This document shows, piece by piece, positions 5,337-30,791 of a stretch of DNA of 64,000 nucleotides. The first letter of the stretch is position 1. The number at the start of each line of letters is the position of its first letter. Position numbers and translations under genes: made by a program. Below the pieces are notes generated by a model. The model did no database searches. It saw nothing but the letters and a program-made list of their open reading frames with translations, and was not told the DNA's origin. The stretch is from a virus, in the IMG/VR virus record IMGVR_UViG_3300027754_003462. One strand, given 5' to 3'.

Positions 5337-8132
5337 TTATTTCAGCAAAGCCAAGGATTTTATTCTTGCCAGCACAGCATCGCCTTCTTTAAGCCCATCG
5401 CCGAGTTTGTCACCAATCTTGCCGCCTGCTAGGCCTCCGATTACACCGCCAACTGGTCCGCCGGTTACAGCACCCATTGCTCCACCTGCAATTGCCCCTG
5501 GAAGTCCACCAATGGCTCCACCTAGGGCCGCGCCAGCCGCTGGGCCTACTGCTTGTCCGGCCATGTCACCTGCGATACCTCCGGCAGCACTGCCTGCCAA
5601 TGTACCTTTCCACCCATCAGTGAGTTTCCGTGCATTTCGCACAATCTCGTTGTCTTCATCACCGCGAGCCCGCCCAGGATTCTCATCTGAACCGTGATAC
5701 AAATTCTGACCGGCACTGTATATTGCATCAGCAGGTGCATTTGCTACGTCAGCGGCAGTTGCTCCAATATCTTTGGCAGTGTTGGTTATTGGAAGATTTG
5801 TTTCTCTTACAAATTTTGGAGTTTCATCAGGAGTGCCCGAATCATTGGCATTAGTGGCCATTTTATTGCCAAGCGTGGCTCCTACTATTCCTCCAGCAAG
5901 TGCTCCTGGAAGTCCGCCAGCGGCAAGGCCACCCATGCTGCCAACGAACCCACCAGCACCGGCACCTGCCAATTTTTCTCCAGGGTCATCTTCTTCGTCC
6001 ATGGTTTCATACATGCCGCCACATTCGGCCAGACCGTGTTCAGGACAGTATTCGCCTTCCATGGTCATGTTGCATCCGGCACCTTCTGTAGCCACTGGCA
6101 TGGCCATTGGGGCAATAAGGTTTTCATTTACACCTAATTCATCTGCCAGGCGATCGCTGATCCAGTTGTAAGGATCGCCAGTACGTGCTTTCATTGTGCC
6201 ATAAGGCATTTCACCATTGTCACTGTAGTAGTCATACAAGGCATGATACAGGTCATCATCAAGGTCACCGTTGGCTTCGAAGTTTTTGACTTCGTGTTTG
6301 AAACGGTTTAGAATGTGCTCTAGTGTTTCGCCTGCACTGTCCATCAAGCGGCTTTCGGCCACTGGCAATCCGGCCAAGTTACGCAGGCTGTTGATGTCTT
6401 CGAATGTGGCCAGGTTGTCACCTTCTGCCGCCACAGCAGGTTGTTGCGCTTTTGTAACACCAATTGTGAACTGTCCCATTACCGGTTGGGTAAATAACCA
6501 CCGCTGGTCTCTAAACATATCAAAGTATGGATTAACTGCTTTGTTCATGTTTTCCCCTGTAAGCGCACCAGGTTGCCGTAAATAAGGGTCGTTGAGACTC
6601 TTGCCCATTTCTCGATACACATCGTCTGCCCACCGCTGGCCTCTGCGTTTGCTGATAGTGATTGAACCATCATCATTGTATTTGGGCTCAAACTTGTCCT
6701 GACCACAATATTGATCTAATGATTTGAGTATTTTTTGAGCATACTGGTTAGTTGCCTGTGGATCTATTTGAGCATCTAACGCTGGCGCCACTTGTCCTGG
6801 TATTGCTTCCGCAATAGGTTGTTGTGGCATAGGATTAGGTGGTACAGCCGCTGCCACAGGAGCAGTTGCGCCTGTTTGTGGTTCGGCAGGATTGCCCGGA
6901 GCGACAGGCTCTGGCAACTCAACGCCCAGTTCGGCCAAGCGGTTCATAACTTCTGTATCGTTCCAGCAGTTGGCTCGCGGATCTTGATCAGCCAGAGCAT
7001 GCAGTCGATCAAACAATTCATCGTCACCCACCAAGTCATACAGTTGTTCTGTTGCGTTGGTTGCATCGGGACCAACAATGAGTTCTTTGGTCATGAGTGT
7101 TTTTAACTTGTCCAATTGCTCAGGAGTTTCTGGCAGGGTCCATGTGCCTTCTGCTAGATTGTTAATCCAGTTTTCAAAAATATCTGCTTCTTTCATATCT
7201 TGTCCTCTTTGCTGAATCTTGGCCAGCAGTGGTAATGCCGCTTCAATACGGCTGTCTATACTCTGTTCAATGAACAGGGTCTTGATGTTGTCAACAACAC
7301 CTTCTTGTTCGTTAATGGTGGCTGGATGCCACGATTCGAAATACTTTGCGTAGCCACGGCCTGAGGCCATGTGCTTGAGATTTTCACGTAAGGTTTGATA
7401 GTAGACTTGTGCTTCTGTTACTAGTTCTTGTGTGACACCTTCCAAGATACGATTGGCACTTGCTCTATTGAACCGGCTTAACACAGCAATTTCGGTTACT
7501 GTTTCTGAGATGTGACAGCCGCGAATGTCATAGGGCTTGCCACCTTGGCGCACATGTTCCAACATGGCTCTGGCACCACTTAGACTTTTAAATCCCAGTT
7601 TGAACTTTTCACCCTCGGCTGTTTCGATAAACATCCGGTCAATGTGGCGATAACGTGCATCACCTTCGCCCAAGGGCTGACTGTGTACAATTTGTAATCG
7701 GGCTTGAGTAGGCTCGCCTGCGTAACTGACTTTGCGAGTGCCATAGTAGCCTTCAAACAGGCCCTCTTGTATGGCTGCCATGCCTTGCATGGTGTGCTTG
7801 AGTTGGTTGATGTCCGCTATGCTGTGTGTCCAACGATTGCTGGTGGCCTTTTGATTCAGGTGCTGTAAGAAGTCAAAGAACTCTGACTTGTCATCACCTT
7901 CCATGGTACGACCTAGATTGTCCCCGTACATGATCTTCATCTCATTGTCGCTGTCCAGCACAATGACCATGGTGCCGTAGTTCTTGCCTGCGCCGGAAAT
8001 GTAGTCAAATGTAAATGTTTTGGCATCTTCTGCGTTGGAGGGCTTGCCCATTCGGTCCAGCATTTCGGGGTGGAAATTGCGTGTGGCCAGCAAATCCAGC
8101 AGTTGTTGTGATATAGAGTTTGTTGTTGCCAT
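5337..8132 (-). CDS. 931-aa modular protein, probably virion/head-associated, with C-terminal glycine zippers
   Basis: Long ORF with TAAATA 7 nt upstream. Contains recurrent hydrophobic-X-E motifs and GxxxG arrays. Confidence 0.7.
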   Translation of the reverse strand: MATTNSISQQLLDLLATRNFHPEMLDRMGKPSNAEDAKTFTFDYISGAGKNYGTMVIVLDSDNEMKIMYGDNLGRTMEGDDKSEFFDFLQHLNQKATSNRWTHSIADINQLKHTMQGMAAIQEGLFEGYYGTRKVSYAGEPTQARLQIVHSQPLGEGDARYRHIDRMFIETAEGEKFKLGFKSLSGARAMLEHVRQGGKPYDIRGCHISETVTEIAVLSRFNRASANRILEGVTQELVTEAQVYYQTLRENLKHMASGRGYAKYFESWHPATINEQEGVVDNIKTLFIEQSIDSRIEAALPLLAKIQQRGQDMKEADIFENWINNLAEGTWTLPETPEQLDKLKTLMTKELIVGPDATNATEQLYDLVGDDELFDRLHALADQDPRANCWNDTEVMNRLAELGVELPEPVAPGNPAEPQTGATAPVAAAVPPNPMPQQPIAEAIPGQVAPALDAQIDPQATNQYAQKILKSLDQYCGQDKFEPKYNDDGSITISKRRGQRWADDVYREMGKSLNDPYLRQPGALTGENMNKAVNPYFDMFRDQRWLFTQPVMGQFTIGVTKAQQPAVAAEGDNLATFEDINSLRNLAGLPVAESRLMDSAGETLEHILNRFKHEVKNFEANGDLDDDLYHALYDYYSDNGEMPYGTMKARTGDPYNWISDRLADELGVNENLIAPMAMPVATEGAGCNMTMEGEYCPEHGLAECGGMYETMDEEDDPGEKLAGAGAGGFVGSMGGLAAGGLPGALAGGIVGATLGNKMATNANDSGTPDETPKFVRETNLPITNTAKDIGATAADVANAPADAIYSAGQNLYHGSDENPGRARGDEDNEIVRNARKLTDGWKGTLAGSAAGGIAGDMAGQAVGPAAGAALGGAIGGLPGAIAGGAMGAVTGGPVGGVIGGLAGGKIGDKLGDGLKEGDAVLARIKSLALLK

Positions 8133-8150: not shown

Positions 8151-9740
8151 TCATCGCATCAAAGCAATGAAGGGAAAAGGTTCGATTATGTTATCAGTGT
8201 GGTCTTTTAGGTAGGAATTAAGGTCTGCATGATAAGATTGTAACAACATCAGCATACGGGTCACAAGCAGGCCTGCCATCACAAGATCATCTGTTTCTCC
8301 GATCTTGGCCGCGTAACTGGAACCGGCAGCCACAAATGTTTTTAGTTCAGTTATCAGGGGTTTTGAGTAGATCTTCATACGCCCAGATTCTATTAGAATT
8401 TTGAACTTGTTGCAGGCCACAATCTTGCTCTTGTTGGTAGTGGTAAATCCCTTGCGGATTCTGCGTCCGTTTGAACTTTGTACTGAATTGTCGCTGAGGA
8501 AATAGCCCGGGATATTTTCTTCTCCGTATTCTGCAATGGAGATCAAGGCTGCTTCACCCAAGGTATTGTTTTCCACTGAGTAGTAGATTTTCTTTTCATC
8601 CTTGACCACTGAGTGTATTTCTTTGATGATGTCTGCTAGGATTCGGATCTGTGTGGGCACATCCGTTCGGTTGTGGCGCCATTCGGCCACTTGTTCAGTG
8701 GTTTCTGCTTCAAATACTTGTATGGCCGAAGGATCGCCACCTGTACCCAGGCTAGGATCAAGTGCCACAATGTACATCTTGTCCTGGTCAATGGGGCGAT
8801 ACCAGCGTACTTGTCCAGTCTTGTGTGTGGGTTCTTGACCTTCCAGTTCCAATAACTTGATAGGAGCGATCAATGTTTCGTCGTTGATAACAAAGTCACA
8901 GTCCATCTCTCGACGGAAACGTTCGTCGCCTAGTTGGCTACGCTGTTCTGCGGCCCAGGCATCGTCACGGTCTGGGTGCTCACGCCAAAAGGCACGAAAT
9001 GCCCGAAAGCCGTTGATGCCCAGGCCATCGGCTCGTGGGTTGCCAAACTCATCTTCTGTCTTGTTGGCACCCTTCCAGATGTAGGCAAACTGATCTTCGT
9101 CTGAGTTGGGCGTGCTAGTGATAATTGCTTTACCACCTGTGCTCAGTGTGGGTGTGATAGATGTCCAGAACTCTTTGGCAATTGTGGGTCTCACAAACGC
9201 AAACTCGTCTAGATACAGCAAGGTAATACTCATACCACGACCGGTATTTTCAGTTGTTGTTTGACTTACAATACGTGATCCGTTGTCAAACTCTAACGAG
9301 CCTTTGTTGTAACTGGTGGCACCTGCTCTAATATGATTAGGGCATAGTTCATAGGCATAGCGAATACGTTGCATGATCTCTTGTGCGCCCAGATATTTGT
9401 GTGCGGCAATAAGAATAGTAGCATCAGGTATAAACATAGCATACCATAACAGGTAACCTGCGGCTGACGTTGACTTACCGGTTTGTCGAGGCATCAGCGA
9501 AATTGAGAAACGATTGTTGTGATAGTTTGCAATCAGTCTCTGTTGATATTCAAAAGCATGATACAACATTTTGCCACGAACAGGATGTTGAATATGAAAA
9601 AAGTTGTCCATGAAGTACATAGGGCCGGTCACAGGATCTGCGCACCGAGCAAAGTCTTCAAGTTCTGATTCAGTGAATGTTTCTCGACGATGTGGTGCTT
9701 TGACCAGTACAGTATCAAGCGTATTTTTTGCGCCAATCAT
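8151..9740 (-). CDS. gp17: Terminase large subunit
   Basis: Walker A PRQTGKS, Walker B YLDEFAF, TSTPN, and nuclease motifs ALDPS and DDLVMA. Start at MIGAK is inferred. Confidence 0.95.
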   Translation of the reverse strand: MIGAKNTLDTVLVKAPHRRETFTESELEDFARCADPVTGPMYFMDNFFHIQHPVRGKMLYHAFEYQQRLIANYHNNRFSISLMPRQTGKSTSAAGYLLWYAMFIPDATILIAAHKYLGAQEIMQRIRYAYELCPNHIRAGATSYNKGSLEFDNGSRIVSQTTTENTGRGMSITLLYLDEFAFVRPTIAKEFWTSITPTLSTGGKAIITSTPNSDEDQFAYIWKGANKTEDEFGNPRADGLGINGFRAFRAFWREHPDRDDAWAAEQRSQLGDERFRREMDCDFVINDETLIAPIKLLELEGQEPTHKTGQVRWYRPIDQDKMYIVALDPSLGTGGDPSAIQVFEAETTEQVAEWRHNRTDVPTQIRILADIIKEIHSVVKDEKKIYYSVENNTLGEAALISIAEYGEENIPGYFLSDNSVQSSNGRRIRKGFTTTNKSKIVACNKFKILIESGRMKIYSKPLITELKTFVAAGSSYAAKIGETDDLVMAGLLVTRMLMLLQSYHADLNSYLKDHTDNIIEPFPFIALMR

Positions 9741-10491
9741 CCAATATTCTTTCTGCAAACATTTTGTGTCCTTGTGGGCCAGCATGCATGTAATCTCTGG
9801 CATACTCTACTTCTTCTCGACTGCGAGCAAAATAATCGTGTGCGTCGTAGGTCAAACAGGGTATTCCTAAATTTTGACAAAGAGCCTGAACTGCCAATTT
9901 GTTCTTTGCGTTATTTAAGTCTTGATTACCTTCATTTGTCATCCAGTGCTTGAGAATCACATCAGCACCGAACTCACCGTCAGTGGTATTGGGCATCATT
10001 GTATGCATTTCAGGTTTGCCTGTTGCTCTAATAATATCAAATCTGTTTTTAGGTGGAGCGGCCATGACAACCAACTCCGGGCGTAACACTGGCAACCAGA
10101 ACTTTGCCAACATAAAACAAGTGTCTGCGCTGGTACCGCCCCAGGCCAAGTTGTATGATGTCATGTTGAGTTCATTGCCCAATATGGTCGGCCAGATTGT
10201 GTCAAGTGGCAGTCCAATGCCCACTGTGTAACTACAGCCCAGTGCAACCACCGACTTGACTCCAAACTCAAATTCTTGGCATCTGAATCCATACTTGTTT
10301 ATCTTGTATGTGATTGCATTGGGCTTGTCCCAACCTTTGGCCTGAAAATATTCACGGTGTGCAGGATCTTGTATCATGCGCTCGTAACTTTCTTTAGTGT
10401 CTGTTGGCAGCCAATCTAGTGTTCGTCCGGCACATGATATCCCCGGGTGCCACGGTGGTGCCAATGGCAGTGAATCTTTAAACGAATCCAT
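9715..10491 (-). CDS. SGNH/GDSL-like hydrolase or acyltransferase
   Basis: ALGCSYT (GDS-like block), NLAWGGTS and DYMH (DxxH). Confidence 0.6.
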   Translation of the reverse strand: MDSFKDSLPLAPPWHPGISCAGRTLDWLPTDTKESYERMIQDPAHREYFQAKGWDKPNAITYKINKYGFRCQEFEFGVKSVVALGCSYTVGIGLPLDTIWPTILGNELNMTSYNLAWGGTSADTCFMLAKFWLPVLRPELVVMAAPPKNRFDIIRATGKPEMHTMMPNTTDGEFGADVILKHWMTNEGNQDLNNAKNKLAVQALCQNLGIPCLTYDAHDYFARSREEVEYARDYMHAGPQGHKMFAERILDDWRKKYA

Positions 10492-11635
10492 GTTTGATTC
10501 CTTCTGCAAGTTCTGACCATAGGTCAACAAAATGCGTTGTTTTGTTTAGTTCAGTTTCTATTTTTTGATGAAACTTCAACACCTCAGGTTTATACTTGTT
10601 GATATCTTTGACATAAGTGTTATCCTGTAACTGCTTGCGATAGTTTTGTAGCGTGTGTATTCCTAAATTAATGTGGTGGCCCCAGCGTTCTGTCACTTGA
10701 TCAATTTGAGACATTGCCTGCAATCGCAGTTGTTCAGGCAGTCGTCTTGCATCTAGATCATAAGGATGCATGAGTTCGCACCAGTAAATTTCTAAAGATC
10801 GGGCTGTACAGAATTCATAATATGAAATCAAATCAAATGCATTGTATATGCTGTAGGCCGGGTGTGCTTTGATTGTTTGTGAATCTTGATTCATAGTGTC
10901 AAGGTTGGCAGTTAGTGTTGTCCATTGTGCTCCGTTGCGAACATATTCAAACTTGTCAGCCTCAACATTGTCAAAACTCACCATCCACTCCACACGTGGC
11001 CAAGTCTTGAGTTTTTGGTATATAGGGTTTGTGACAATGTTCACACTGAGATTGGTTGTGACCATGACATTGACTTTGTTGGGATCAAGGTGATCTAAAA
11101 AATCAGCCAGGCCTTTTTGCAATAGTGGTTCTCCGCCACCTAGACTGAGTCCGTGTATGTTATGGCCTTGTGTTTTTGCAAGTGCAATCAAGTCCTCATG
11201 CTCATTTTTAACATGATTGATAGGTATTTTCTTGACGCTTTGCCAGGCTGTGCTGGTTTCAGGATTACAATACACACAAGATAAGTTACACAAATTACTC
11301 CAGTTGACCACAAGATGTTGTAATTCAAAAAAATCTAAATCTTTGTCAATCTCTGTTAGTGTACTTTGGTCAGCATGGCGCACCGTCCTGCCACTTGAAC
11401 CTGTTGTTTCTTCAAGACTTTTGCACCAACTGCATCCTGGGTGCCATTCACCACGAGCCATGGTTTCTCTCATGCTTGTTAATATAGGGCCTCGAATGAT
11501 GTTTTGTATTGTGTCTTTTTTGTTGTTTCCCACCATCTCTACACAATGGAAACAAGGACTAACATGCCCGGATTGATCAATGTTCAAACTGGTCCAAGGC
11601 GCTGAGCAAAATGTAGGGCTGTCAGTTATTTGCAT
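10478..11635 (-). CDS. Radical SAM enzyme with N-terminal SPASM/twitch-like Fe-S domain
   Basis: CNLSCVYC, GGEPLL and TTN. N-terminal CSAPW..PC..CSWC. Confidence 0.85.
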   Translation of the reverse strand: MQITDSPTFCSAPWTSLNIDQSGHVSPCFHCVEMVGNNKKDTIQNIIRGPILTSMRETMARGEWHPGCSWCKSLEETTGSSGRTVRHADQSTLTEIDKDLDFFELQHLVVNWSNLCNLSCVYCNPETSTAWQSVKKIPINHVKNEHEDLIALAKTQGHNIHGLSLGGGEPLLQKGLADFLDHLDPNKVNVMVTTNLSVNIVTNPIYQKLKTWPRVEWMVSFDNVEADKFEYVRNGAQWTTLTANLDTMNQDSQTIKAHPAYSIYNAFDLISYYEFCTARSLEIYWCELMHPYDLDARRLPEQLRLQAMSQIDQVTERWGHHINLGIHTLQNYRKQLQDNTYVKDINKYKPEVLKFHQKIETELNKTTHFVDLWSELAEGIKHGFV

Positions 11636-12765
11636 AGGAATTCCAATTCTGGCCATAGTCGTACAAAATCTCCCGATTTGTCTGGATGGAACACAGTTTC
11701 GTTGTCATGAATATGTTTACGAAAGTTTTGTTGTATCTCAGGATTGGGCTCTGATTGACTGTACTTGTCTCTTGCTTGATCAAAGAACTGTCGCTCTGCT
11801 GGGGTAGCAATGTCCATCTCATAGAATCGATCGATTTCCCGGCTGGCCAACTCAGCCACTTCGGGTCCATGTTGGAACGGATCAAGATAATCTGGTTGGA
11901 ATAAATTTTGCCACAGCACTGTGGTGCCAGTATCTTGGGCAAACTGCCTAAACTCACAAAGTCGTGTGGCACTGTAAATATTGTATACAGCGTGTATGCC
12001 GCCCCAATGGCCATTGTTCTTCATGAGATATTTAACTGTTTGTATATTGTGTTGCAACAACTTCCAGTCAGCACCGTGACGTACATATTCTAGTCTATCA
12101 CCCGTGTTGTCAAAACTCATGGACCAGCCTACATTACGTCTCTGGGTAAGTTTTTTAAATATTTTATTTTTTTCCAGATCAACATTCATATTTGTGATCA
12201 GTGTTACTATGGCACTTTCAGGAATGACATCTAGCAAGCGTTCGTTTTCGGGCAATAATAATGGTTCGCCTCCGACCAAGGCCACTTCGTGTATGTGTTC
12301 ATGATGTTGCTCAAGAAAGTCACACACTTGTTCATAGTAGGGTCTTGTGCCTGATCGGAATGGCACGTTTTTTATACTAGCCCATTTACTAGAACAACCG
12401 GGCCCACAGTAGTTACAACTCAAGTTACAGGTTGTGTTCCAACGCACATCAAATATCACAGGATAGTGATATCGGTCACCTGCTAGGGCATAATCAAAGT
12501 TGGGATTCACACGGTTGTGCCAGGCACGTTCCGAGTCTGCGCCAAAGCGTTCGGCTTTTACACAATTACTGCAATACTCATGCGGCTGACCTTGTGCTAG
12601 GCTGGCACGTATTTCTGCCATTAAATCAGTGTTTAAGATTTCTTCAATGGTGTTGGCATTGAGGTTACCCAACATGTTGGGATTGCCTGCGCAACAGGTT
12701 TTGACATTGCCTTGGGGATTGATGTGCAGGCCACGCCAGGGTGCCGCACAGTAGAAATTGCTCAT
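11626..12765 (-). CDS. Radical SAM enzyme with N-terminal SPASM/twitch-like Fe-S domain (paralog)
   Basis: CNLSCNYC, GGEPLL and ITN. N-terminal CAAPW..CC..CSNC. Confidence 0.85.
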   Translation of the reverse strand: MSNFYCAAPWRGLHINPQGNVKTCCAGNPNMLGNLNANTIEEILNTDLMAEIRASLAQGQPHEYCSNCVKAERFGADSERAWHNRVNPNFDYALAGDRYHYPVIFDVRWNTTCNLSCNYCGPGCSSKWASIKNVPFRSGTRPYYEQVCDFLEQHHEHIHEVALVGGEPLLLPENERLLDVIPESAIVTLITNMNVDLEKNKIFKKLTQRRNVGWSMSFDNTGDRLEYVRHGADWKLLQHNIQTVKYLMKNNGHWGGIHAVYNIYSATRLCEFRQFAQDTGTTVLWQNLFQPDYLDPFQHGPEVAELASREIDRFYEMDIATPAERQFFDQARDKYSQSEPNPEIQQNFRKHIHDNETVFHPDKSGDFVRLWPELEFLCK

Positions 12766-12800
12766 GTAGTATTTACATGCCCAATTTTGCGATGCTACAT

Positions 12801-12878
12801 TTACACCGGGCTGTAGGGATTACGATGTCGATCGTATCCATCGTCGGGCGGTAATACCGGGTACTCGTTATTCCGCAT
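12801..12878 (-). CDS. 25-aa peptide MRNNEYPVLPPDDGYDRHRNPYSPV (absent from the ORF track)
   Basis: Translated by hand. ATG overlaps the end of the nuclease gene and the ORF fills the intergenic gap. No clear SD. Confidence 0.5.
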   Translation of the reverse strand: MRNNEYPVLPPDDGYDRHRNPYSPV

Positions 12879-13686
12879 TGCGACCACACCGGGCACGTTT
12901 GGCATTGGTCAATGCACCAAAATCCACTGGCCATTCTTTGCCAGGTTGTACTTCCGTAACACCTGGGGGAAACTTATAGTCAACCCCTGCTACTTTTTCT
13001 ATTTCTGCAATGGGCCGGCGGAACACAGTCAAGTCGTTGCCCAGGTTAACATAGGGCTTGGTATGTGGGAATACCCAACCTGCGGCCTGCTTGGTTGTGT
13101 TGTTGATAACAATCTTGTAGAAGCCATGTGGTACAATAACACCGTTGCCAATTGTGGGGTCACCGGCACCATACAATGCACCTACATAAATTGTGAAAGG
13201 TTGGTTTAGTTGCACCGTCCATCCGCGAACTGCTGTTTCCAACAGTTTCCAAATACCACGATTTAATGATCCGTGTTGCGGATACATGTTGGTCATCAAG
13301 AAACTTTCATATTCCACTTGTGCTGACCAACTCAAGTCACCGTCAGGAGCGGCATGTCCTTTGTCGTAGCCTGTGCCTGCATAGTCATCTGGTCTGGCAC
13401 CTGTGCCACCTAGGCTTTGGTCTGCTACAAATGCATTAGTGCGCGGAAAGCATCCTAGTGCGTTTTGTGGTAGTAGTGTATATGCCACATAAGCAGGAAT
13501 CTTAACAGGTGCATCATATGCCACAAGATACGCTTCACGGCAAATTGCTTGTACCGGACGATTGACTATGGCAAATCCATAAGGTGAGTGTACTTGACAT
13601 GCCTGTACAGGATTAGGAGCACGTTGATCCCAGGCTTGTGCTAGTCCTGCTGTGAGTAGCAAGACCACGGTTAATATTTTTTTCAT
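12868..13686 (-). CDS. DNA/RNA non-specific endonuclease (NucA/EndoG family) with signal peptide
   Basis: GYDKGH (DRGH-like), TNMYPQ..LNRGIW and VP..FYKI. N-terminus MKKILTVVLLLTAGLAQA. Confidence 0.85.
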   Translation of the reverse strand: MKKILTVVLLLTAGLAQAWDQRAPNPVQACQVHSPYGFAIVNRPVQAICREAYLVAYDAPVKIPAYVAYTLLPQNALGCFPRTNAFVADQSLGGTGARPDDYAGTGYDKGHAAPDGDLSWSAQVEYESFLMTNMYPQHGSLNRGIWKLLETAVRGWTVQLNQPFTIYVGALYGAGDPTIGNGVIVPHGFYKIVINNTTKQAAGWVFPHTKPYVNLGNDLTVFRRPIAEIEKVAGVDYKFPPGVTEVQPGKEWPVDFGALTNAKRARCGRNAE

Positions 13687-13718: not shown

Positions 13719-14099
13719 TTAGTAACCGTTGAAGGGTTTTACTGGGCTGGTGTGATTGACCGAGGCTGGTTCTAAACTGTTGGGGGTACTTATCTGTACC
13801 TTTTTAACAGGCAGGCCGGCCATTTTCAATGCTTGATCAATAACTGGCTCTACTGAGGCATTGAATCCAGCAATCACAGCATCTTCGCCAAATGCGGCTT
13901 GTGCTGACCAAGCAGGCATGTTGGGTATGGGATCTTGTGTGCCGGCATCACTTCTGGCTCGAGCCATGGCCACACCCAGACGATATATTTGATAAGGGTC
14001 ACTGGACTGCACCCCTGGTAACACAAACACATGATTCATGGGATCTGCCAGTTCAGGAGGCAATGTTGCTTCTTCAGTGATAAATTCTCGTGCTCTCAT
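13719..14099 (-). CDS. Probable internal head protein (CTS-like N-terminus)
   Basis: Begins MRAREFITE. Paralog of the next gene (R.GVAMA, VN.TSP..F.GY). Confidence 0.6.
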   Translation of the reverse strand: MRAREFITEEATLPPELADPMNHVFVLPGVQSSDPYQIYRLGVAMARARSDAGTQDPIPNMPAWSAQAAFGEDAVIAGFNASVEPVIDQALKMAGLPVKKVQISTPNSLEPASVNHTSPVKPFNGY

Positions 14100-14467
14100 C
14101 AGTAGCCTTTAAATGCTTCAATGGGACTAGTGGTGTTTACCGCAGGATGTTCTTCACTGTCAAAATCGCCGTGATTTAGATCTTCATAATCTGCCCCAGC
14201 TGCCTTGTATGCTTGTATGAGCATTCGTTGCTCAACTTCAGTATAAGGGCTTGCTGTGCGTTTTTTTCCTACCCAACTCTTGCCATCCATCTTGATTGGT
14301 TTATTAGATCCGTCGGCCATGGCCACGGCCATCATCACACGATTGAGAGTATAGTCACTGTTGGCTTTTTCACTGTCACTAAACAAATTAAGGCCCACCG
14401 TGGCACTTTGATTACGGGTGCTTAATTTTCCCTGACGCATTTCAGTAACAAACTCTTGTGCTCGCAC
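14099..14467 (-). CDS. Probable internal head protein (CTS-like N-terminus)
   Basis: GTG start, begins MRAQEFVTE. Its stop overlaps the next start (TGATG). Confidence 0.6.
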   Translation of the reverse strand: MRAQEFVTEMRQGKLSTRNQSATVGLNLFSDSEKANSDYTLNRVMMAVAMADGSNKPIKMDGKSWVGKKRTASPYTEVEQRMLIQAYKAAGADYEDLNHGDFDSEEHPAVNTTSPIEAFKGY

Positions 14468-14970: not shown

Positions 14971-17919
14971 TTATACTCCGTATTGTCCTTTGTATTGTTT
15001 CCAAAGATTAGCAGTGGAAGCAAGAATGCCTTCGTCAATATCTTTTTTCTTGACAGCATTTGTGCCTGGAATTTTTTCTCCAACTTTGACGTCATTATCT
15101 GCAAGGCCTTTTGTAAACAAGTTGCCTTCTTCAGTTTTTTCTTCGTCAACTTCTTTTTTCTTGACACCGGCCATTTCCATCATTCTATGAAGTTCTTGAT
15201 CATCTTCGTATGTGTGTTGACGCTCGTCCTGGCTGGCAATCACAGGAATAGTTGTTTGTCCAGTTGATTTAGGACCGTTTAATCCACCCGAATATTCAAA
15301 ACTATCTTGTGCAGTTTCAGTGTTGGTAGGATAATCAGGTGAATTTTGGCTTACAACGTCATCGCCATAGGCTTCGTCAACTGTTTCGCAGCCGCAGTCT
15401 TCTTGACCACATGCATCGCACACTTCGTCGTCGTGGCCATGATCATCATCAACTGCTTGACGTATTTGATCAGCAATGCCTTCTGCACCGTGTACTTCTA
15501 TTTCGGCGCCAGGTGCTTGGCCGCCCATGTCATGATCGCCGCCTAGGCCGGCATTTTTCAACAACTCGCCCAGTTTCATGGCATCGTCATCAGTGGCAGT
15601 CACAGTCACGCTCCGACTTGGGCCGCCTGTGGCGTCAGTGTTCATGCTCATGCTGATATTCATGCTTTCAGAGATCATGCTTTCTAGTTCACGATTCATG
15701 GAGTCATAAATGCCTTGTCCAAACCCGAAGCCACTTGATGCTGTGGGAGTGTCAGTTCCGCCTTGCTCTTTGACTTTCTTTTTCTTCTCGTCGTATTCAA
15801 TGTCTTTGGTGACTTTCTTGCCGGCTTTTTCTGCTTTGGTATCTTCGGATCCACGCTTCTTGCCGTGAATGCCATCTTTCTTTTTCTCATCATACTCAAT
15901 GTCTTTGGCAACCTTGCGGCCTGCACGTTCAGCACGGTTGTCACGGGTAGAAGTTTTTTCTTCGCCCATGGCCATTTCGTCGTCCTCTTGGTTCTGCATG
16001 TAGTCGTCCACAGCAGTCATCATGCTTTCGATCTTGGCCAACTTGGATTGTACCCATTCTGGCAGGTTGTCATTGTCGCCCAGGATCTTTTCCAGGGCTT
16101 GTGCATGACGCACCACAGTTTTAATACTGTCTTTGGCCATGTCGCCTTCTTGATCATACTCACCACGATCTATGATATCAAGATCACCTTCCGCCATGTC
16201 TTGTTTTAAGGCTTGCACAACAGCAGTTAACAAATCATTGAATGTTAATTTGGGATTGACCAAGGCACCGGGAACAATAGTTTTGTCGCCGTATACAAGG
16301 TCAACGTCGTCAAAATAAAGTGGAGAATTTCTTGGCAAACCGGCGTTTTTTTCTAACCAGTTTGTAAGTTTCTTTACATCCTGAGTTTCTTTGTAGTAAC
16401 CAGCGACGTTTCCAAGATCGGCTTCGTTGGTTTTGCGACCGCCTTTGTGTTTGGTAGCCTTGCTGGTCACACGCTCAGGGCCTTTGTCAGCACCTTTTGG
16501 ACGACCGCGTCCGCGCTTTTCACCTGCGGCTGGCTCATCACTATCAGCACCTACTGAATAACCTGTGTTGGGATCAACTCTGCGTGTTACTCTGCGGCCG
16601 CCAGGAACTTCTTGTGTGTCATGCTTGTCACCGTGTGTGACATCGCCAACTTTGCGTTTGCGCATTTCATCACGGGCGCTGTCCACAGTCGGAAAGCCTT
16701 CGTCAGCCACTTGCTTGTTGCCGCCTTTGCGCAACATAGCAAAGTCGTTGGCATCTAGTTTGCCGTTCTTGTTCATGTCAATTTTCTTTTGCTTGGGACT
16801 AAGTGCGCTTTTGATGGCTTCAGCAGCCACGTCACCCAACATCTCATCAACTTCTTTCTTGGCGCCGGCAATCTTGTCGGCAAAAGTAATTTTGTCTTTG
16901 GGAGGTGCAAGTTTAGCAAATGACTTTTGTTTAGGTGTCATTGGCGCACCGTCTTCTTCAGCCATGGCAGCATTTCTCATTTTTGCTGGCATCTGTGATG
17001 CTAACTTTTGAGCATGCATTTTATCGTTCATATTGGCTTTATGGACACTGGTTTTATTGGATAAATCTGCATAGTGTTGGCTTGCTTTATTGTACCCAGG
17101 AATCAATGCCATTTCAGGATCATCACTTTGTTTAACCAATTTACTTTTTATACGGTCAACTTCATTATCAAATTTTACACTACGTCGGTTTGCCGCATTT
17201 CTAGTTCTGTTTAGCAACTCAGAACTTAGTTCATCAAGTTCTTGTGGCTTCTTGCCAGTTTGTGGCATGCCCATCTTGCGTTGCAAGTCTTTGCGCATGG
17301 ATTGATCGTCACCATGGCCCAGGCGGTTCATCACAGCGCCGCCAACTTTCTTGACTGCACTGCCAACTCGCTTGGCCACATCACCCATGCCCTCGTCCAT
17401 GTCTTTTTGTTTTTTACGCAAGGCACTATTGAACTTGTCATCTAGTCTATTGTATTTGTCAGATGCTTTTTGATCTCGGCGATCGTCAGCATCAGCATAT
17501 TTCATACCTGCCTTGTCCCTTGCACGTTTTAATAGGTCAGTACTGAGTTCATTGACTTGGTCTTTATCATACTTGTCATACTTGGCACGAACTGGATCCA
17601 GTGCCTTGCCTTCACGTCCAGCCTTGGCCAGGGCCTGCATGCCTTCTTTGCCATACTTCTCATAGCCTTTGGCCGCACGGCTCATGCCTTCTTCTTCTAG
17701 TTTGCCAGATTTTTTCATCTTTTGGAACTGAGCACCCGCCACACGCTCACCAGCGGCCTTGCTACCGTATTCTTTGCCGGCTTTTTTTGCCAAGGCATCA
17801 AACCCAGTGGTCTTGTTGTTGTGCTTGCCCATGTCACGTTCATTTAACTGACCGTGTGTGGTTTCTGGCTTCTCGCGAATTGCGTTTAGTTTGTCGTTGA
17901 GATTGTAAAAAAATGTCAT
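14971..17919 (-). CDS. 982-aa charged modular protein, probable prohead core/internal polyprotein
   Basis: K/D/E-rich with about 15 spaced [VLIM]-X-E-like motifs and one EF-hand-like loop (DMNKNGKLDANDF). GAGGA SD. Confidence 0.7.
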   Translation of the reverse strand: MTFFYNLNDKLNAIREKPETTHGQLNERDMGKHNNKTTGFDALAKKAGKEYGSKAAGERVAGAQFQKMKKSGKLEEEGMSRAAKGYEKYGKEGMQALAKAGREGKALDPVRAKYDKYDKDQVNELSTDLLKRARDKAGMKYADADDRRDQKASDKYNRLDDKFNSALRKKQKDMDEGMGDVAKRVGSAVKKVGGAVMNRLGHGDDQSMRKDLQRKMGMPQTGKKPQELDELSSELLNRTRNAANRRSVKFDNEVDRIKSKLVKQSDDPEMALIPGYNKASQHYADLSNKTSVHKANMNDKMHAQKLASQMPAKMRNAAMAEEDGAPMTPKQKSFAKLAPPKDKITFADKIAGAKKEVDEMLGDVAAEAIKSALSPKQKKIDMNKNGKLDANDFAMLRKGGNKQVADEGFPTVDSARDEMRKRKVGDVTHGDKHDTQEVPGGRRVTRRVDPNTGYSVGADSDEPAAGEKRGRGRPKGADKGPERVTSKATKHKGGRKTNEADLGNVAGYYKETQDVKKLTNWLEKNAGLPRNSPLYFDDVDLVYGDKTIVPGALVNPKLTFNDLLTAVVQALKQDMAEGDLDIIDRGEYDQEGDMAKDSIKTVVRHAQALEKILGDNDNLPEWVQSKLAKIESMMTAVDDYMQNQEDDEMAMGEEKTSTRDNRAERAGRKVAKDIEYDEKKKDGIHGKKRGSEDTKAEKAGKKVTKDIEYDEKKKKVKEQGGTDTPTASSGFGFGQGIYDSMNRELESMISESMNISMSMNTDATGGPSRSVTVTATDDDAMKLGELLKNAGLGGDHDMGGQAPGAEIEVHGAEGIADQIRQAVDDDHGHDDEVCDACGQEDCGCETVDEAYGDDVVSQNSPDYPTNTETAQDSFEYSGGLNGPKSTGQTTIPVIASQDERQHTYEDDQELHRMMEMAGVKKKEVDEEKTEEGNLFTKGLADNDVKVGEKIPGTNAVKKKDIDEGILASTANLWKQYKGQYGV

Positions 17920-17923
17920 TGTA

Positions 17924-18529
17924 TTATCCTCTTGGGTTTGCGCCAGTGGCTGGGCGGGGTTGACGCTTGATATTGGTCATGGGGCTCTTGTTACCCATTG
18001 GCAATTCATTTGTGGTTTTGGCAGGAGGTGTCTTGCCCCCGGCCACGGTAAAATTACTACGATATGCATTTTTCAAGACTTCGTGATCGTACGGACCAGT
18101 TGCATAGTCTTTGCTCAAGGCTCGTTGTTCTGCATCAGGAGCAGGGTATGGTGAATCTAACAAATCTTTATTTTGATCTGCAATCTTTTCACTTTCAATG
18201 TCGAGACTTTCTTCATATGGAGTGGACATCATCACAATGCGATTGGGATCCAGCCCAAGAATCTGTGCCAGTTGTTTGATTTGTGGCTCAATGGCTGGAT
18301 ACTTGAATTCCACATCCACAATCTTCATTGGCTGATTGGGAAACGCTGGAAAATCAGGGATCACTCGACGAACCGGTGTGCTCTTGGCATTTGACATATT
18401 GACAATGTCAAATTGAGCACATTTATCTCGGAGTTCTTTGAAAAAGCCATCGGGCACATCACCCACCACTTTGATGCGGTAGTTGTATGTACGTTCGCTT
18501 TCGGCTAGGTATTTGGCAAATGGTTTCAT
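17924..18529 (-). CDS. Probable head-associated protein (CTS-like N-terminus MKPFAKYLAE)
   Basis: Preceded by TAAATA and an AGGA SD. First gene of the internal-protein block. Confidence 0.6.
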   Translation of the reverse strand: MKPFAKYLAESERTYNYRIKVVGDVPDGFFKELRDKCAQFDIVNMSNAKSTPVRRVIPDFPAFPNQPMKIVDVEFKYPAIEPQIKQLAQILGLDPNRIVMMSTPYEESLDIESEKIADQNKDLLDSPYPAPDAEQRALSKDYATGPYDHEVLKNAYRSNFTVAGGKTPPAKTTNELPMGNKSPMTNIKRQPRPATGANPRG

Positions 18530-18550: not shown

Positions 18551-19057
18551 TTATTCTTTTTGCGTGTTTTGGCTTTTGCCAATAATACGTTCCAGCAGAT
18601 CATTGCGGCTTAGAACCACGCCGTGTGCTGTTTGTGCGGCGGCCATGCCCTCAGGATCTTTGGCATCCAGGGCTTGTTGTTGTTGATCTAGACGCATTTT
18701 TTTCATCTGTAGATCAATCATTTTGAGTTTCTTGTCCAGTTTGGCAGTCTTGGCTGTGATAGCATGACCCAGCATGTTTGATGCTACTGAAAAGATTTCA
18801 CTGGCAAAGCGTGAATCAACTTGAAAACCAAGATCCATGAGATCTTTGTAACTGCCTGTTGCCAGGCCGGCAAGTTCATCCATTTCGGTATCTGTTGCTT
18901 CAAGCCCACGCACAGCAGGCAAAGCATTGTCTACTTTGTCAATGGCTTCGTCCAGGGCTAGTAGTGTTTCTCTATTGGTAGGAAGTGTGGGCAGAGCAAG
19001 GTCTACTTCTTCCTCGGTGTGTGGGAGATCAAAAAGGTCTTCAAGTTTACGAGTCAT
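18551..19057 (-). CDS. Probable terminase small subunit (gp16-like)
   Basis: Size, LEDLFDL N-terminus and central coiled coil (..VASNML..KMIDLQ) resemble T4-like small terminases. Has its own late promoter. Confidence 0.5.
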   Translation of the reverse strand: MTRKLEDLFDLPHTEEEVDLALPTLPTNRETLLALDEAIDKVDNALPAVRGLEATDTEMDELAGLATGSYKDLMDLGFQVDSRFASEIFSVASNMLGHAITAKTAKLDKKLKMIDLQMKKMRLDQQQQALDAKDPEGMAAAQTAHGVVLSRNDLLERIIGKSQNTQKE

Positions 19058-30080: not shown

Positions 30081-30791
30081 ATGATCTTCAATGATAGCAA
30101 ATATACACGTTGGTATAATCAACTCGTCGGGCAAGCAGGGGCTCGAATTTTGCCACGAGATGTTTATACAGAGAAACATCATATTGTTCCCCAAAGCCTC
30201 GGAGGAAACAATAGCATAGACAATCTGGTTAGGCTTACTGCCCGTGAGCATTTTGTTTGCCATTGGTTGCTTACCAAGATGGTTACCGGAGTAAATCAAA
30301 AAAAAATGGCCTATGCTTGTAAGCGAATGATGCATAGCAAAAATTCTAGCCAACCCAGATATCAAATTACATCAAGAATATACGAGAACCTTAAGATTCA
30401 ATTAAATGTAATGCTTAAAAATAGGCAGTTCAGTGAGTCTTGGAAAGAAAAATTAAAACAAGCGGCTAGAAAACGTGCTGACAATGAAAGTATCGATGCC
30501 AAAGAAATTAGAAGAAAAACTATGATTAGTGTCAATAAATCGCGCAAAGGTGAGAAACGATTAGCCACCACAGGTGACAAAAATCACATGTTTGGAATAA
30601 GACTAACTGGAGAGAGCAATCACTTTTTTGGAAAGAAACACACAGAAGAAACTCTTGCAAAACTTAAAGTCCCAAAACCTAAATTTCAATGTCAACATTG
30701 TAAGACAGTTGTAGGTGGCCAATCAAATTTAATACGCTGGCACAACGACAATTGTAAATTAATTTTAGGAGAATTAAAATTCCACGCCTGA
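30081..30791 (+). CDS. Free-standing HNH homing endonuclease
   Basis: EKHHIVP.SLGG...NLV.LTAREHF.CH, NUMOD3-like FFGKKHTEET and C-terminal CQHC..WH..C. AT-rich. Confidence 0.85.
   Translation: MIFNDSKYTRWYNQLVGQAGARILPRDVYTEKHHIVPQSLGGNNSIDNLVRLTAREHFVCHWLLTKMVTGVNQKKMAYACKRMMHSKNSSQPRYQITSRIYENLKIQLNVMLKNRQFSESWKEKLKQAARKRADNESIDAKEIRRKTMISVNKSRKGEKRLATTGDKNHMFGIRLTGESNHFFGKKHTEETLAKLKVPKPKFQCQHCKTVVGGQSNLIRWHNDNCKLILGELKFHA

Follow-up and report, generated by a model that had tools for sequence, protein, structure and literature searches.

The prohead protease gp21 of phage T4 cuts after L/I-x-E, and the internal proteins of this phage bear a ten-residue targeting peptide (PMC9026906, PMC3012670). 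In phiKZ-like phages many inner-body proteins are cut after A/S-x-E (PMC9026906, PMC10052503), and in SPN3US propeptides of 111-254 residues are taken off by several cuts and mostly cleared (PMC10052503). Polyvalent proteins are packaged proteins in which numerous effector domains are joined (Iyer et al. 2017, PMC5512222). Our literature search found no account of a multi-cassette peptide polyprotein bounded by prohead-protease sites. A candidate for such a protein is encoded in the IMG/VR virus record IMGVR_UViG_3300027754_003462, of which we analysed a stretch of 64,000 nucleotides (nt), referred to as the window. As proposed in an initial annotation made from the sequence alone, a single open reading frame (ORF; P0001) of 982 amino acids (aa) fills positions 14971-17919; it is located on the minus strand (17919 -> 14971), which that annotation had left unstated. 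We assign a probability of about 50% to the reading that its product is a capsid-internal cassette protein which is cut by a T4-type prohead protease at hydrophobic-x-Glu junctions. Head targeting, each of the cuts, and the number, fate and function of the resulting pieces are matters which we only infer.

Like the T4 internal proteins IPI, IPII, IPIII and Alt, the 982-aa protein possesses a leader which ends in L-x-Glu as well as a basic character that would suit association with DNA, and the gene content of its locus is variable. In addition, the clade has, as the T4 internal-protein system does, a T4-type prohead protease. Unlike the T4 internal proteins, each of which is a small protein made from one gene and cut once, it harbours about 8-16 candidate cuts in one chain of swappable cassettes. 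Its leader of 22-27 residues shows no similarity to the ten-residue targeting sequence of T4, and homology to IPI, IPII, IPIII or Alt is absent by PHROG and Pfam.

The excess of the junction motif becomes evident at the level of the family. Relatives number more than 3,000 in a 90%-clustered collection, and a 50%-clustered library contains 2,846 representatives at E <=0.001, 269 of them at 1e-30. They are nearly all metagenomic, some of them residing on viral contigs of 320-340 kb, and their length ranges from about 600 to 1,140 aa. For 113 representatives at <=50% identity the observed motif counts were related to a local-shuffle expectation. In this sample [LIVM]xE is enriched 1.62-fold, with a z-score above 0 in 99%, the respective values being 0.86-fold for [LIVM]xD, 0.87-fold for [LIVM]E and 0.75-fold for [LIVM]..E; over the complete ORF sets of the window and a related 340 kb genome, the [LIVM]xE background averages 1.13-1.17-fold. 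The sixteen tripeptides listed in the initial annotation are all present where it had placed them, with P1 Glu at residues 27, 76, 124, 176, 230, 321, 359, 407, 499, 577, 653, 718, 751, 849, 926 and 963. Nine glutamates (27, 76, 176, 359, 499, 718, 751, 849 and 915) persist in 74-99% of the diverse members, their P3 interchanging among Leu, Ile, Val, Met and Thr. Asp takes the place of these glutamates in at most 9% of members, and in at most 2% at seven of the nine. Sites with a hydrophobic P3 constitute nine of the 17 conserved Glu compared to 27% expected (p 0.02) and two of the 14 conserved Asp. The family-level excess of the motif is real. Instead of all sixteen sites it concerns some six to nine; among those listed, about 9 to 12 are either conserved or situated at cassette junctions.

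The positions at which cassettes are gained and lost provide a second line of evidence. An all-against-all comparison of the 121 closest members with stringent flanks yielded 66 cassette clusters with 132 boundaries, and four large cassettes of the query (residues 30-78, about 119-176, 231-321 and 499-577) each start and stop no more than a few residues from a listed site. Within 2 residues of [LIVMT]xE lie 52 of the 132 boundaries compared to 17 expected (3.05-fold, p 2e-14), while the controls give 0.59-fold for xD, 0.8-fold for xK and 1.74-fold for any Glu. Sites at both ends are found in 15 cassettes, 1.1 being expected. The offset from the site is equal at both ends in 16 of 23 cassettes, which implies that a cassette carries its own copy of the site and that the site is thereby regenerated. 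Insertions are observed exactly at site 751 (P0009, P0079), at site 407 (P0045, P0042) and at site 176 (P0022, P0085), and in some members the LNE end of the leader is duplicated. A DUF3008 cassette is flanked by hydrophobic-x-Glu sites in every context examined, whatever stands upstream of it. In the best-supported model, that of a capsid-targeted protein cut by the prohead protease at these junctions, every module would have to retain one site as cassettes come and go. Among the junction sites, 51 are distinct; they have in common a hydrophobic P3, an acidic or small P2 and the Glu; P1' is, like in T4, Gly, Ser or Ala in 55% of them.

The structural predictions support an architecture in which small self-contained modules are strung together within disordered linkers. 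AlphaFold (55-row alignment) gives a mean predicted local distance difference test (pLDDT) value of 52.6, with confident islands (helical hairpin 40-70, beta unit 420-450, hairpin 590-642, beta-hairpin plus helix 754-790) amid long low-confidence stretches. The ESM Atlas model is concordant (pLDDT 0.48), its Atlas matches being viral clusters without annotation. All sixteen listed sites avoid the predicted helices and strands (p 0.004), and 14 of them are in low-pLDDT segments (p 0.009). The self-contained segments of which the initial annotation had spoken are recognisable as folded islands in disordered linkers, with the sites outside secondary structure. Family members agree at both termini and are mosaic in between; inside the chain, conservation is highest in the block 325-378, in the AT-hook module 420-499, in the helical hairpin 578-640 and in the acidic core of about 719-905. 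The gene and its parts are as follows.

14971..17919, minus strand: the 982-aa ORF (P0001), a core late gene of the clade
17839..17919, minus strand: N-terminal leader, residues 1-27; conserved helix, variable spacer, end at LNE27
17686..17832, minus strand: cassette A, residues 30-78; basic helical hairpin, end at LEE76, missing from 55 relatives
17392..17547, minus strand: cassette B, about residues 125-176; between VNE124 and MDE176, in about 30% of close relatives
16957..17229, minus strand: cassette C, residues 231-321; LDE230 to MAE321, in about 10% of close relatives
16744..16779, minus strand: EF-hand or dockerin-like calcium-loop motif, residues 381-392; sub-threshold Dockerin_1
16423..16698, minus strand: conserved basic module, residues 408-499; small beta unit plus AT-hook-like RGRGRPKG, end at TNE499
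16189..16422, minus strand: cassette D, residues 500-577; TNE499 to MAE577, carried by only a few relatives
15961..16188, minus strand: acidic helical-hairpin module (LPEWVQSK), residues 578-653; predicted helices 590-612 and 621-642
15766..15960, minus strand: basic module, residues 654-718; tandem duplicated 18-residue unit, end at VKE718, DNA repeat D2
15175..15765, minus strand: acidic core, the most conserved part, residues 719-915; ISE751, VDE849, Cys cluster, SGGLNGPK stretch
14974..15174, minus strand: variable C-terminal tail, residues 916-982; two copies of the K-K-K-(D/E)-h-D-E junction, aromatic-Lys-Gly end

The leader, for which AlphaFold predicts a helix at residues 2-16, begins with a start motif common to 203 of 246 relatives and ends with LNE or LAE even if the spacer differs; 89% of the diverse members retain Glu27, its P3 being always L, I or V. 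At the opposite end of the chain an aromatic-K-x motif is found in 192 of 246 relatives, and a guess that the family typically ends, scaffold-like, at M-A-G-[VIL] proved wrong (7 of 246 only). Residues 40-70 of cassette A are modelled with a pLDDT of 92-96. The junction DNA repeats D1 and D9 map to cassette B, and repeat D4 (92% identity across 26 nt) is located in the C-terminal tail; a short E-x-D-L microhomology is shared by the flanks of cassette D. Module 408-499 (net charge +7; pLDDT 85-88 at 420-450) contains the AT-hook-like RGRGRPKG at residues 469-476 (window 16492-16515), of which R469, G472, R473 and P474 are invariant or nearly so, and its terminal Glu499 is kept in 88% with T, V, M or I at P3. 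The helical module around LPEWVQSK, already singled out in the initial annotation, is predicted to form a helical hairpin at 590-642; it has a net charge of -13 and shares homology with the C-terminal portion of a mosaic 179-aa protein from cyanophage S-H9-1. Glu718 at the end of the following basic module is kept in 95%, and a DUF3008 module replaces the duplicated unit of the query in 9 of 55 members. The acidic core comprises a beta-hairpin and a helix ending in the nearly invariant L..L..AG (783-791) as well as the Cys cluster at 834-844.

Three further features had been described initially. The duplicated unit is genuine, 667-680 compared to 700-713 reaching a score of 65 in a diagonal score scan whose shuffle maximum is 42. 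The pair of ELS..LL.R.R modules is likewise present; its score (121-134 compared to 227-240) of 38 is, however, inside the shuffle range, which leaves a relationship of the two merely plausible. The EF-hand-like loop corresponds to the motif at 381-392, which matches Dockerin_1 below the threshold in the query (E 0.0088); 20 of 55 relatives match this family (best 4.7e-5), and EF-hand_7 is found in 3 of 55. If the chain were cut at the listed sites, pieces of 11 to 98 residues would result, those from 28-499 being all net basic and those from 578-653 and 719-915 strongly acidic.

The conservation of the acidic core bears on the question of whether the remaining modules serve any purpose of their own. 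The 982-aa protein might carry a long disposable propeptide whose N-terminal two thirds are shredded and expelled, so that only the acidic core after 718/751 is retained and there is no multi-peptide cargo. SPN3US, as phiKZ, provides a precedent for this (PMC10052503), and the core 719-915 is indeed the most conserved part, the N-terminal modules being freely gained and lost. Yet conservation about equal to that of the core is seen in the AT-hook module 408-499 and in the block 325-378, and the basic modules are of DNA-binding character. Moreover, DUF3008 and the cyanophage 179-aa protein are free-standing small proteins elsewhere, which suggests that such modules have functions of their own. 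We consider the propeptide explanation improbable. Like the inner-body and ejection proteins of phiKZ, 201phi2-1 and SPN3US, the 982-aa protein is a large jumbo-phage protein with several x-x-Glu sites, its cuts being putative; the proteins of those phages are located inside the head, and some of them are associated with DNA (PMC10052503, PMC9026906). Those phages differ in the A/S/G-x-E motif and in that the cuts mostly strip an N-terminal propeptide from one mature domain; they belong to an unrelated phage lineage, for which no cassette architecture has been described.

The DNA repeats at the junctions are of relevance for a different explanation, namely that the protein is a disordered virion protein which is not cut or loses at most its leader, and that hydrophobic-x-Glu marks recombination linkers or short binding motifs. 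Repeats D1, D4 and D9 and the microhomology at both ends of cassette D would be accounted for in this way, as would the weak boundary enrichment in diverse members and the enrichment of other i/i+2 patterns (see below). It would, however, hardly be expected that the 51 distinct junctions are alike only in hydrophobic-x-Glu plus a small residue, that Asp so rarely replaces Glu, or that the same motif closes the conserved leader whatever the spacer. An uncut protein hence appears unlikely to us.

Cleavage of the 982-aa protein by a T4-type enzyme presupposes a protease, which the initial annotation had expected by the capsid gene, outside the window. Such a gene is present in related near-complete genomes: of 5 related contigs, 3 have a Peptidase_S77 (PF03420) match that exceeds the cut-off, among them the two which are >=90% complete. 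In related genomes of 92-98% completeness the Peptidase_S77 gene is situated between the portal gene and that of a 366-aa scaffold, followed by the capsid gene. The clade capsid protein contains L-K-E in its N-terminus where T4 gp23 is cut. The scaffold harbours 21-22 [LIVM]xE sites (two counts), corresponding to 5.7-6.0 per 100 aa, with Leu, Ile, Val and Met at P3. Like T4 gp22, gp67 and gp68, which gp21 degrades to peptides (PMC9026906), the 982-aa protein is charged and partly helical with multiple Glu sites, these being putative cuts. Unlike these core proteins it has a site density about three times below that of the scaffold of its own clade, its gene lies outside the head module, the clade possesses the separate 366-aa scaffold, and its modules are individually conserved, some of them folded. 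An identity as gp22-like scaffold fails, the gene not being located between the protease and capsid genes and the motif density being low.

Two observations on other proteins belong here. In the related 340 kb genome the clade scaffold and a 1,466-aa protein are among the three top [LIVM]xE z-scores. The ORF of the latter (G002 66378-70778, L098) shows the highest excess in G002 (24 compared to 10.3, z 4.85); a five-residue leader ends in L-N-E, and K-R-L-A-G-I is found close to the C-terminus. It is a candidate for a further head-internal protease substrate. The scaffolds of G002 (L086:10049-11149) and PA5oct (84724-85830) end in R-L-A-G-[LI] plus one residue, each being the sole such ORF of its genome.

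The window derives from a T4-like myovirus and encodes a tail sheath, two tube-like genes, a gp4-type head-completion gene, a large terminase, gp32 and UvsX. Judged by terminase similarity, the cultured phages closest to it are jumbo phages of the PA5oct group, followed by Atu_ph07 and GAP32. The 982-aa ORF, preceded by an AGGA ribosome-binding site, starts 4 nt past the stop codon of the 201-aa gene that lies upstream. In about 50 related loci the gene order is fixed: sheath, tube, tube-like, 120-aa, gp4-like, 168-aa, 201-aa and 982-aa gene, continued 3' of the latter by 109-aa, 122-aa and 126-aa genes, a variable stretch, the large terminase, a 931-aa gene and gp32. The slot between the homologues of the 201-aa and 109-aa genes is occupied by one ORF in 59 of 64 related loci. 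In one locus (L076:6487-6489) a single in-frame TAA, either a nonsense variant or perhaps an error of sequencing, replaces the Glu codon of an M-D-E junction and leaves frames of 455 aa and 502 aa. This locus is no genuine two-gene form; an additional 192-aa ORF in L069 is unrelated. The neighbours which matter most for the present argument are the following, CTS denoting the capsid targeting sequence.

17924..18529, minus strand: upstream 201-aa gene, homologue of the PA5oct virion protein gp282 (E 6e-12), with a T4-CTS-like start
18551..19057, minus strand: 168-aa protein, homologue of PA5oct gp283 (E 1e-25)
13719..14467, minus strand: two tandem paralogues of 122 aa and 126 aa, downstream, with conserved T4-CTS-like nine-residue starts

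The first ten, T4-CTS-like residues of the 201-aa protein end in A-E and are kept in 68 relatives. The 122-aa and 126-aa paralogues share the nine-residue start M-R-A-x-E-F-h-x-E, which is near the T4 capsid targeting sequence, and are divergent beyond it; their relatives terminate in F-K-G-Y, resembling the tail of the 982-aa protein.

PA5oct matches the gene order of the window, with both flanking genes being homologous (gp283 to the 168-aa protein, gp282 to the 201-aa protein). The slot of the 982-aa gene is occupied in PA5oct by gp281 (PQE65_gp281, YP_010678933.1), an acidic low-complexity protein of 498 aa which is marked as virion-detected by electrospray ionisation tandem mass spectrometry (ESI-MS/MS). 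It resembles the 982-aa family in its start, in an L-K-N-A-G-L motif and in its F-K-G end, and an end of the F-K-G type is found in only 2 of 391 PA5oct ORFs. A possible entry of the 982-aa protein into the head is suggested indirectly by this synteny with a PA5oct virion protein together with the shared terminal motifs. A profile search of the whole genomes of PA5oct, Atu_ph07 and GAP32 did not find the family, and the syntenic gene of Atu_ph07, gp112, encodes an unrelated fibre-like repeat protein. We would like to note that the L..L..A-G-L motif of residues 783-791 is similar to the scaffold ends named above. Further copies are located at residues 913-919 and 522-528 of the family and in the N-terminus of PA5oct gp281, and it may represent a shared capsid-binding motif. 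L..AG[LIV] as a marker of head proteins was discarded, the pattern having been set post hoc and giving two matches only in an independent genome.

Several observations weigh against a cassette protein cut at hydrophobic-x-Glu junctions. For the query by itself the excess of the motif is marginal and hardly above chance: compared with composition-preserving shuffles, [LIVM]xE occurs 19 times with 13.1 expected (p 0.045; local-shuffle z 2.4, rank 4 of 48 window ORFs), and [LI]xE, the canonical T4 motif, is with 8 compared to 6.1 expected (p 0.27) not enriched. The enrichment over shuffled sequence implied by the initial annotation is barely discernible in the query and holds for the family, where E.[LIVM] (1.42-fold) and [LIVM]xK (1.32-fold) are, however, enriched as well. 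The longer form K-K-(D/E)-h-D-E, common to many of the sites, is far over chance ([DE][LIVM]DE 5 compared to 0.25 expected), the pattern having been defined after it was seen; its junctions are also visible as short DNA repeats, and in diverse members it lacks boundary enrichment. Likewise, the coincidence of cassette boundaries with sites, which had been proposed as a check at the outset, is pronounced in close relatives and weak in diverse members, where it amounts to 1.3-1.4-fold compared to about 1.2-fold for Glu without hydrophobic P3, this test being noisier due to poor pairwise alignments. Even in close relatives neither end of 29 of the 66 cassettes has a site at a tolerance of 2 residues, and at a tolerance of 3 this holds for 22 of 66. 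Conservation is weak at sites 230, 321 and 926. At site 407 Ala or Thr occupies P3, which overall is often Val, Met, Thr or Ala compared to the Leu/Ile of T4 gp21. The site density of the 982-aa protein, 1.9 per 100 aa, is far under that of the scaffold, and the protease gene is absent from the 64-kb window. Owing to their shared ancestry, the members do not supply independent counts of sites and cassettes. Finally, gp281 compared to the family gives a BLAST E above 1 and an hhalign probability of 0.35%. Because significant BLAST or profile similarity is lacking, its orthology rests on position and short motifs, and we do not claim it as a sequence homologue of the 982-aa family. Its detection in virions is modest evidence, since the PA5oct virion list contains evident non-structural enzymes, e.g. 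deoxynucleoside monophosphate (dNMP) kinase.

This weakness of the virion detection would be compatible with a protein that is no head component at all, and instead a packaging accessory, a cytoplasmic DNA-condensing factor or a part of the tail or baseplate. The location of the gene between the gp283-like gene and the large terminase, as well as the DNA binding suggested by the AT-hook, points in the same direction. We nevertheless deem such a role distinctly unlikely: the neighbours have capsid-targeting-like leaders, the site statistics lack an obvious explanation outside a protease context, and the 168-aa neighbour is without similarity to T4 gp16. The position of the 168-aa gene, about 9 kb of other genes away from the large terminase, suggests a small terminase, an assignment which we rejected as BLAST against T4 gp16 reveals no similarity (E 0.86). 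A tape measure identity fails too, since the protein is mostly disordered and varies too much in length and its neighbours are head-completion and packaging genes.

For the cassette protein we envisage the following course of events. The N-terminal helix and the C-terminal aromatic-Lys-Gly tail would bring the mostly disordered chain into the assembling prohead, where the Peptidase S77 prohead protease would cut past Glu at the hydrophobic-x-Glu junctions. The leader would be removed at residue 27 and the modules would be separated, releasing basic helical hairpins, the calcium-loop motif, the AT-hook beta unit, the acidic hairpin and the acidic conserved core. Modules would be gained and lost as cassettes bearing their own junction site. 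Of the pieces, the basic DNA-binding ones would probably remain on the packaged DNA; the acidic ones may leave the head. A more far-reaching version, which we put forward as a tentative and rather doubtful extension, is that of a clade-wide cargo rack. In it, one core gene with one leader and one tail would load exchangeable cassettes (DNA-binding, calcium-binding and zinc-knuckle-like, each with its own prohead-protease site), which would be released as a dozen peptides, stay with the DNA and enter the host as counter-ions or anti-defence peptides.

Should the cassette reading be correct, the T4 scheme of one internal protein with one targeting peptide and one cut would be extended to a cassette-shuffled polyprotein. 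It would provide a simple rule for the prediction of capsid cargo in uncultured jumbo phages and point to an ample, untapped reservoir of small peptides that are injected. It would also offer a natural template for packing several foreign peptides from one gene, analogous to T4 packaging vectors. With more than 2,800 cluster representatives at 50% identity, one bench test would annotate thousands of proteins. All in all, the observations of the initial annotation are partly confirmed and its interpretation is partly supported.

The 982-aa protein, in which Lys, Asp, Gly, Ala and Glu are abundant, matches no Pfam family above threshold and no PHROG. A megablast search of its gene against phage records gave no match, and tblastn against 50,697 phage records gave as sole match 61 residues of a cyanophage. 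The domain-library scan of 55 members revealed no enzyme families; it returned DUF3008 and weak EF-hand/dockerin matches, as well as DUF3164, BOFC_N and Mce4_CUP1 below the threshold. Like polyvalent proteins (PMC5512222) the 982-aa protein combines many modules per chain with a late virion gene setting and extensive mosaicism. Polyvalent proteins, which are predicted to be packaged and delivered, differ in their two to fifteen globular, mostly enzymatic effector domains and often contain a peptidase domain of their own; the modules of the 982-aa protein comprise 30-100 residues, and its junctions fit the prohead protease motif.

A few features of the wider locus deserve mention. Between the cargo-like genes and the large terminase the window (9715-13686, minus strand) encodes a non-specific nuclease, two radical SAM genes and an SGNH-like gene; this stretch is the sole part of the block whose content differs among related loci. 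Directly downstream of the large terminase, the 931-aa protein (5337-8132, minus strand) shows weak PHROG matches to a virion structural protein and an endolysin and has the top [LIVM]xE excess in the window (24 compared to 13.8, z 3.5). Homing-endonuclease genes are found amid structural genes both in the window (30081-30791, plus strand) and in a related genome (L086:12384-13250), in the latter directly 3' of a 402-aa capsid gene.

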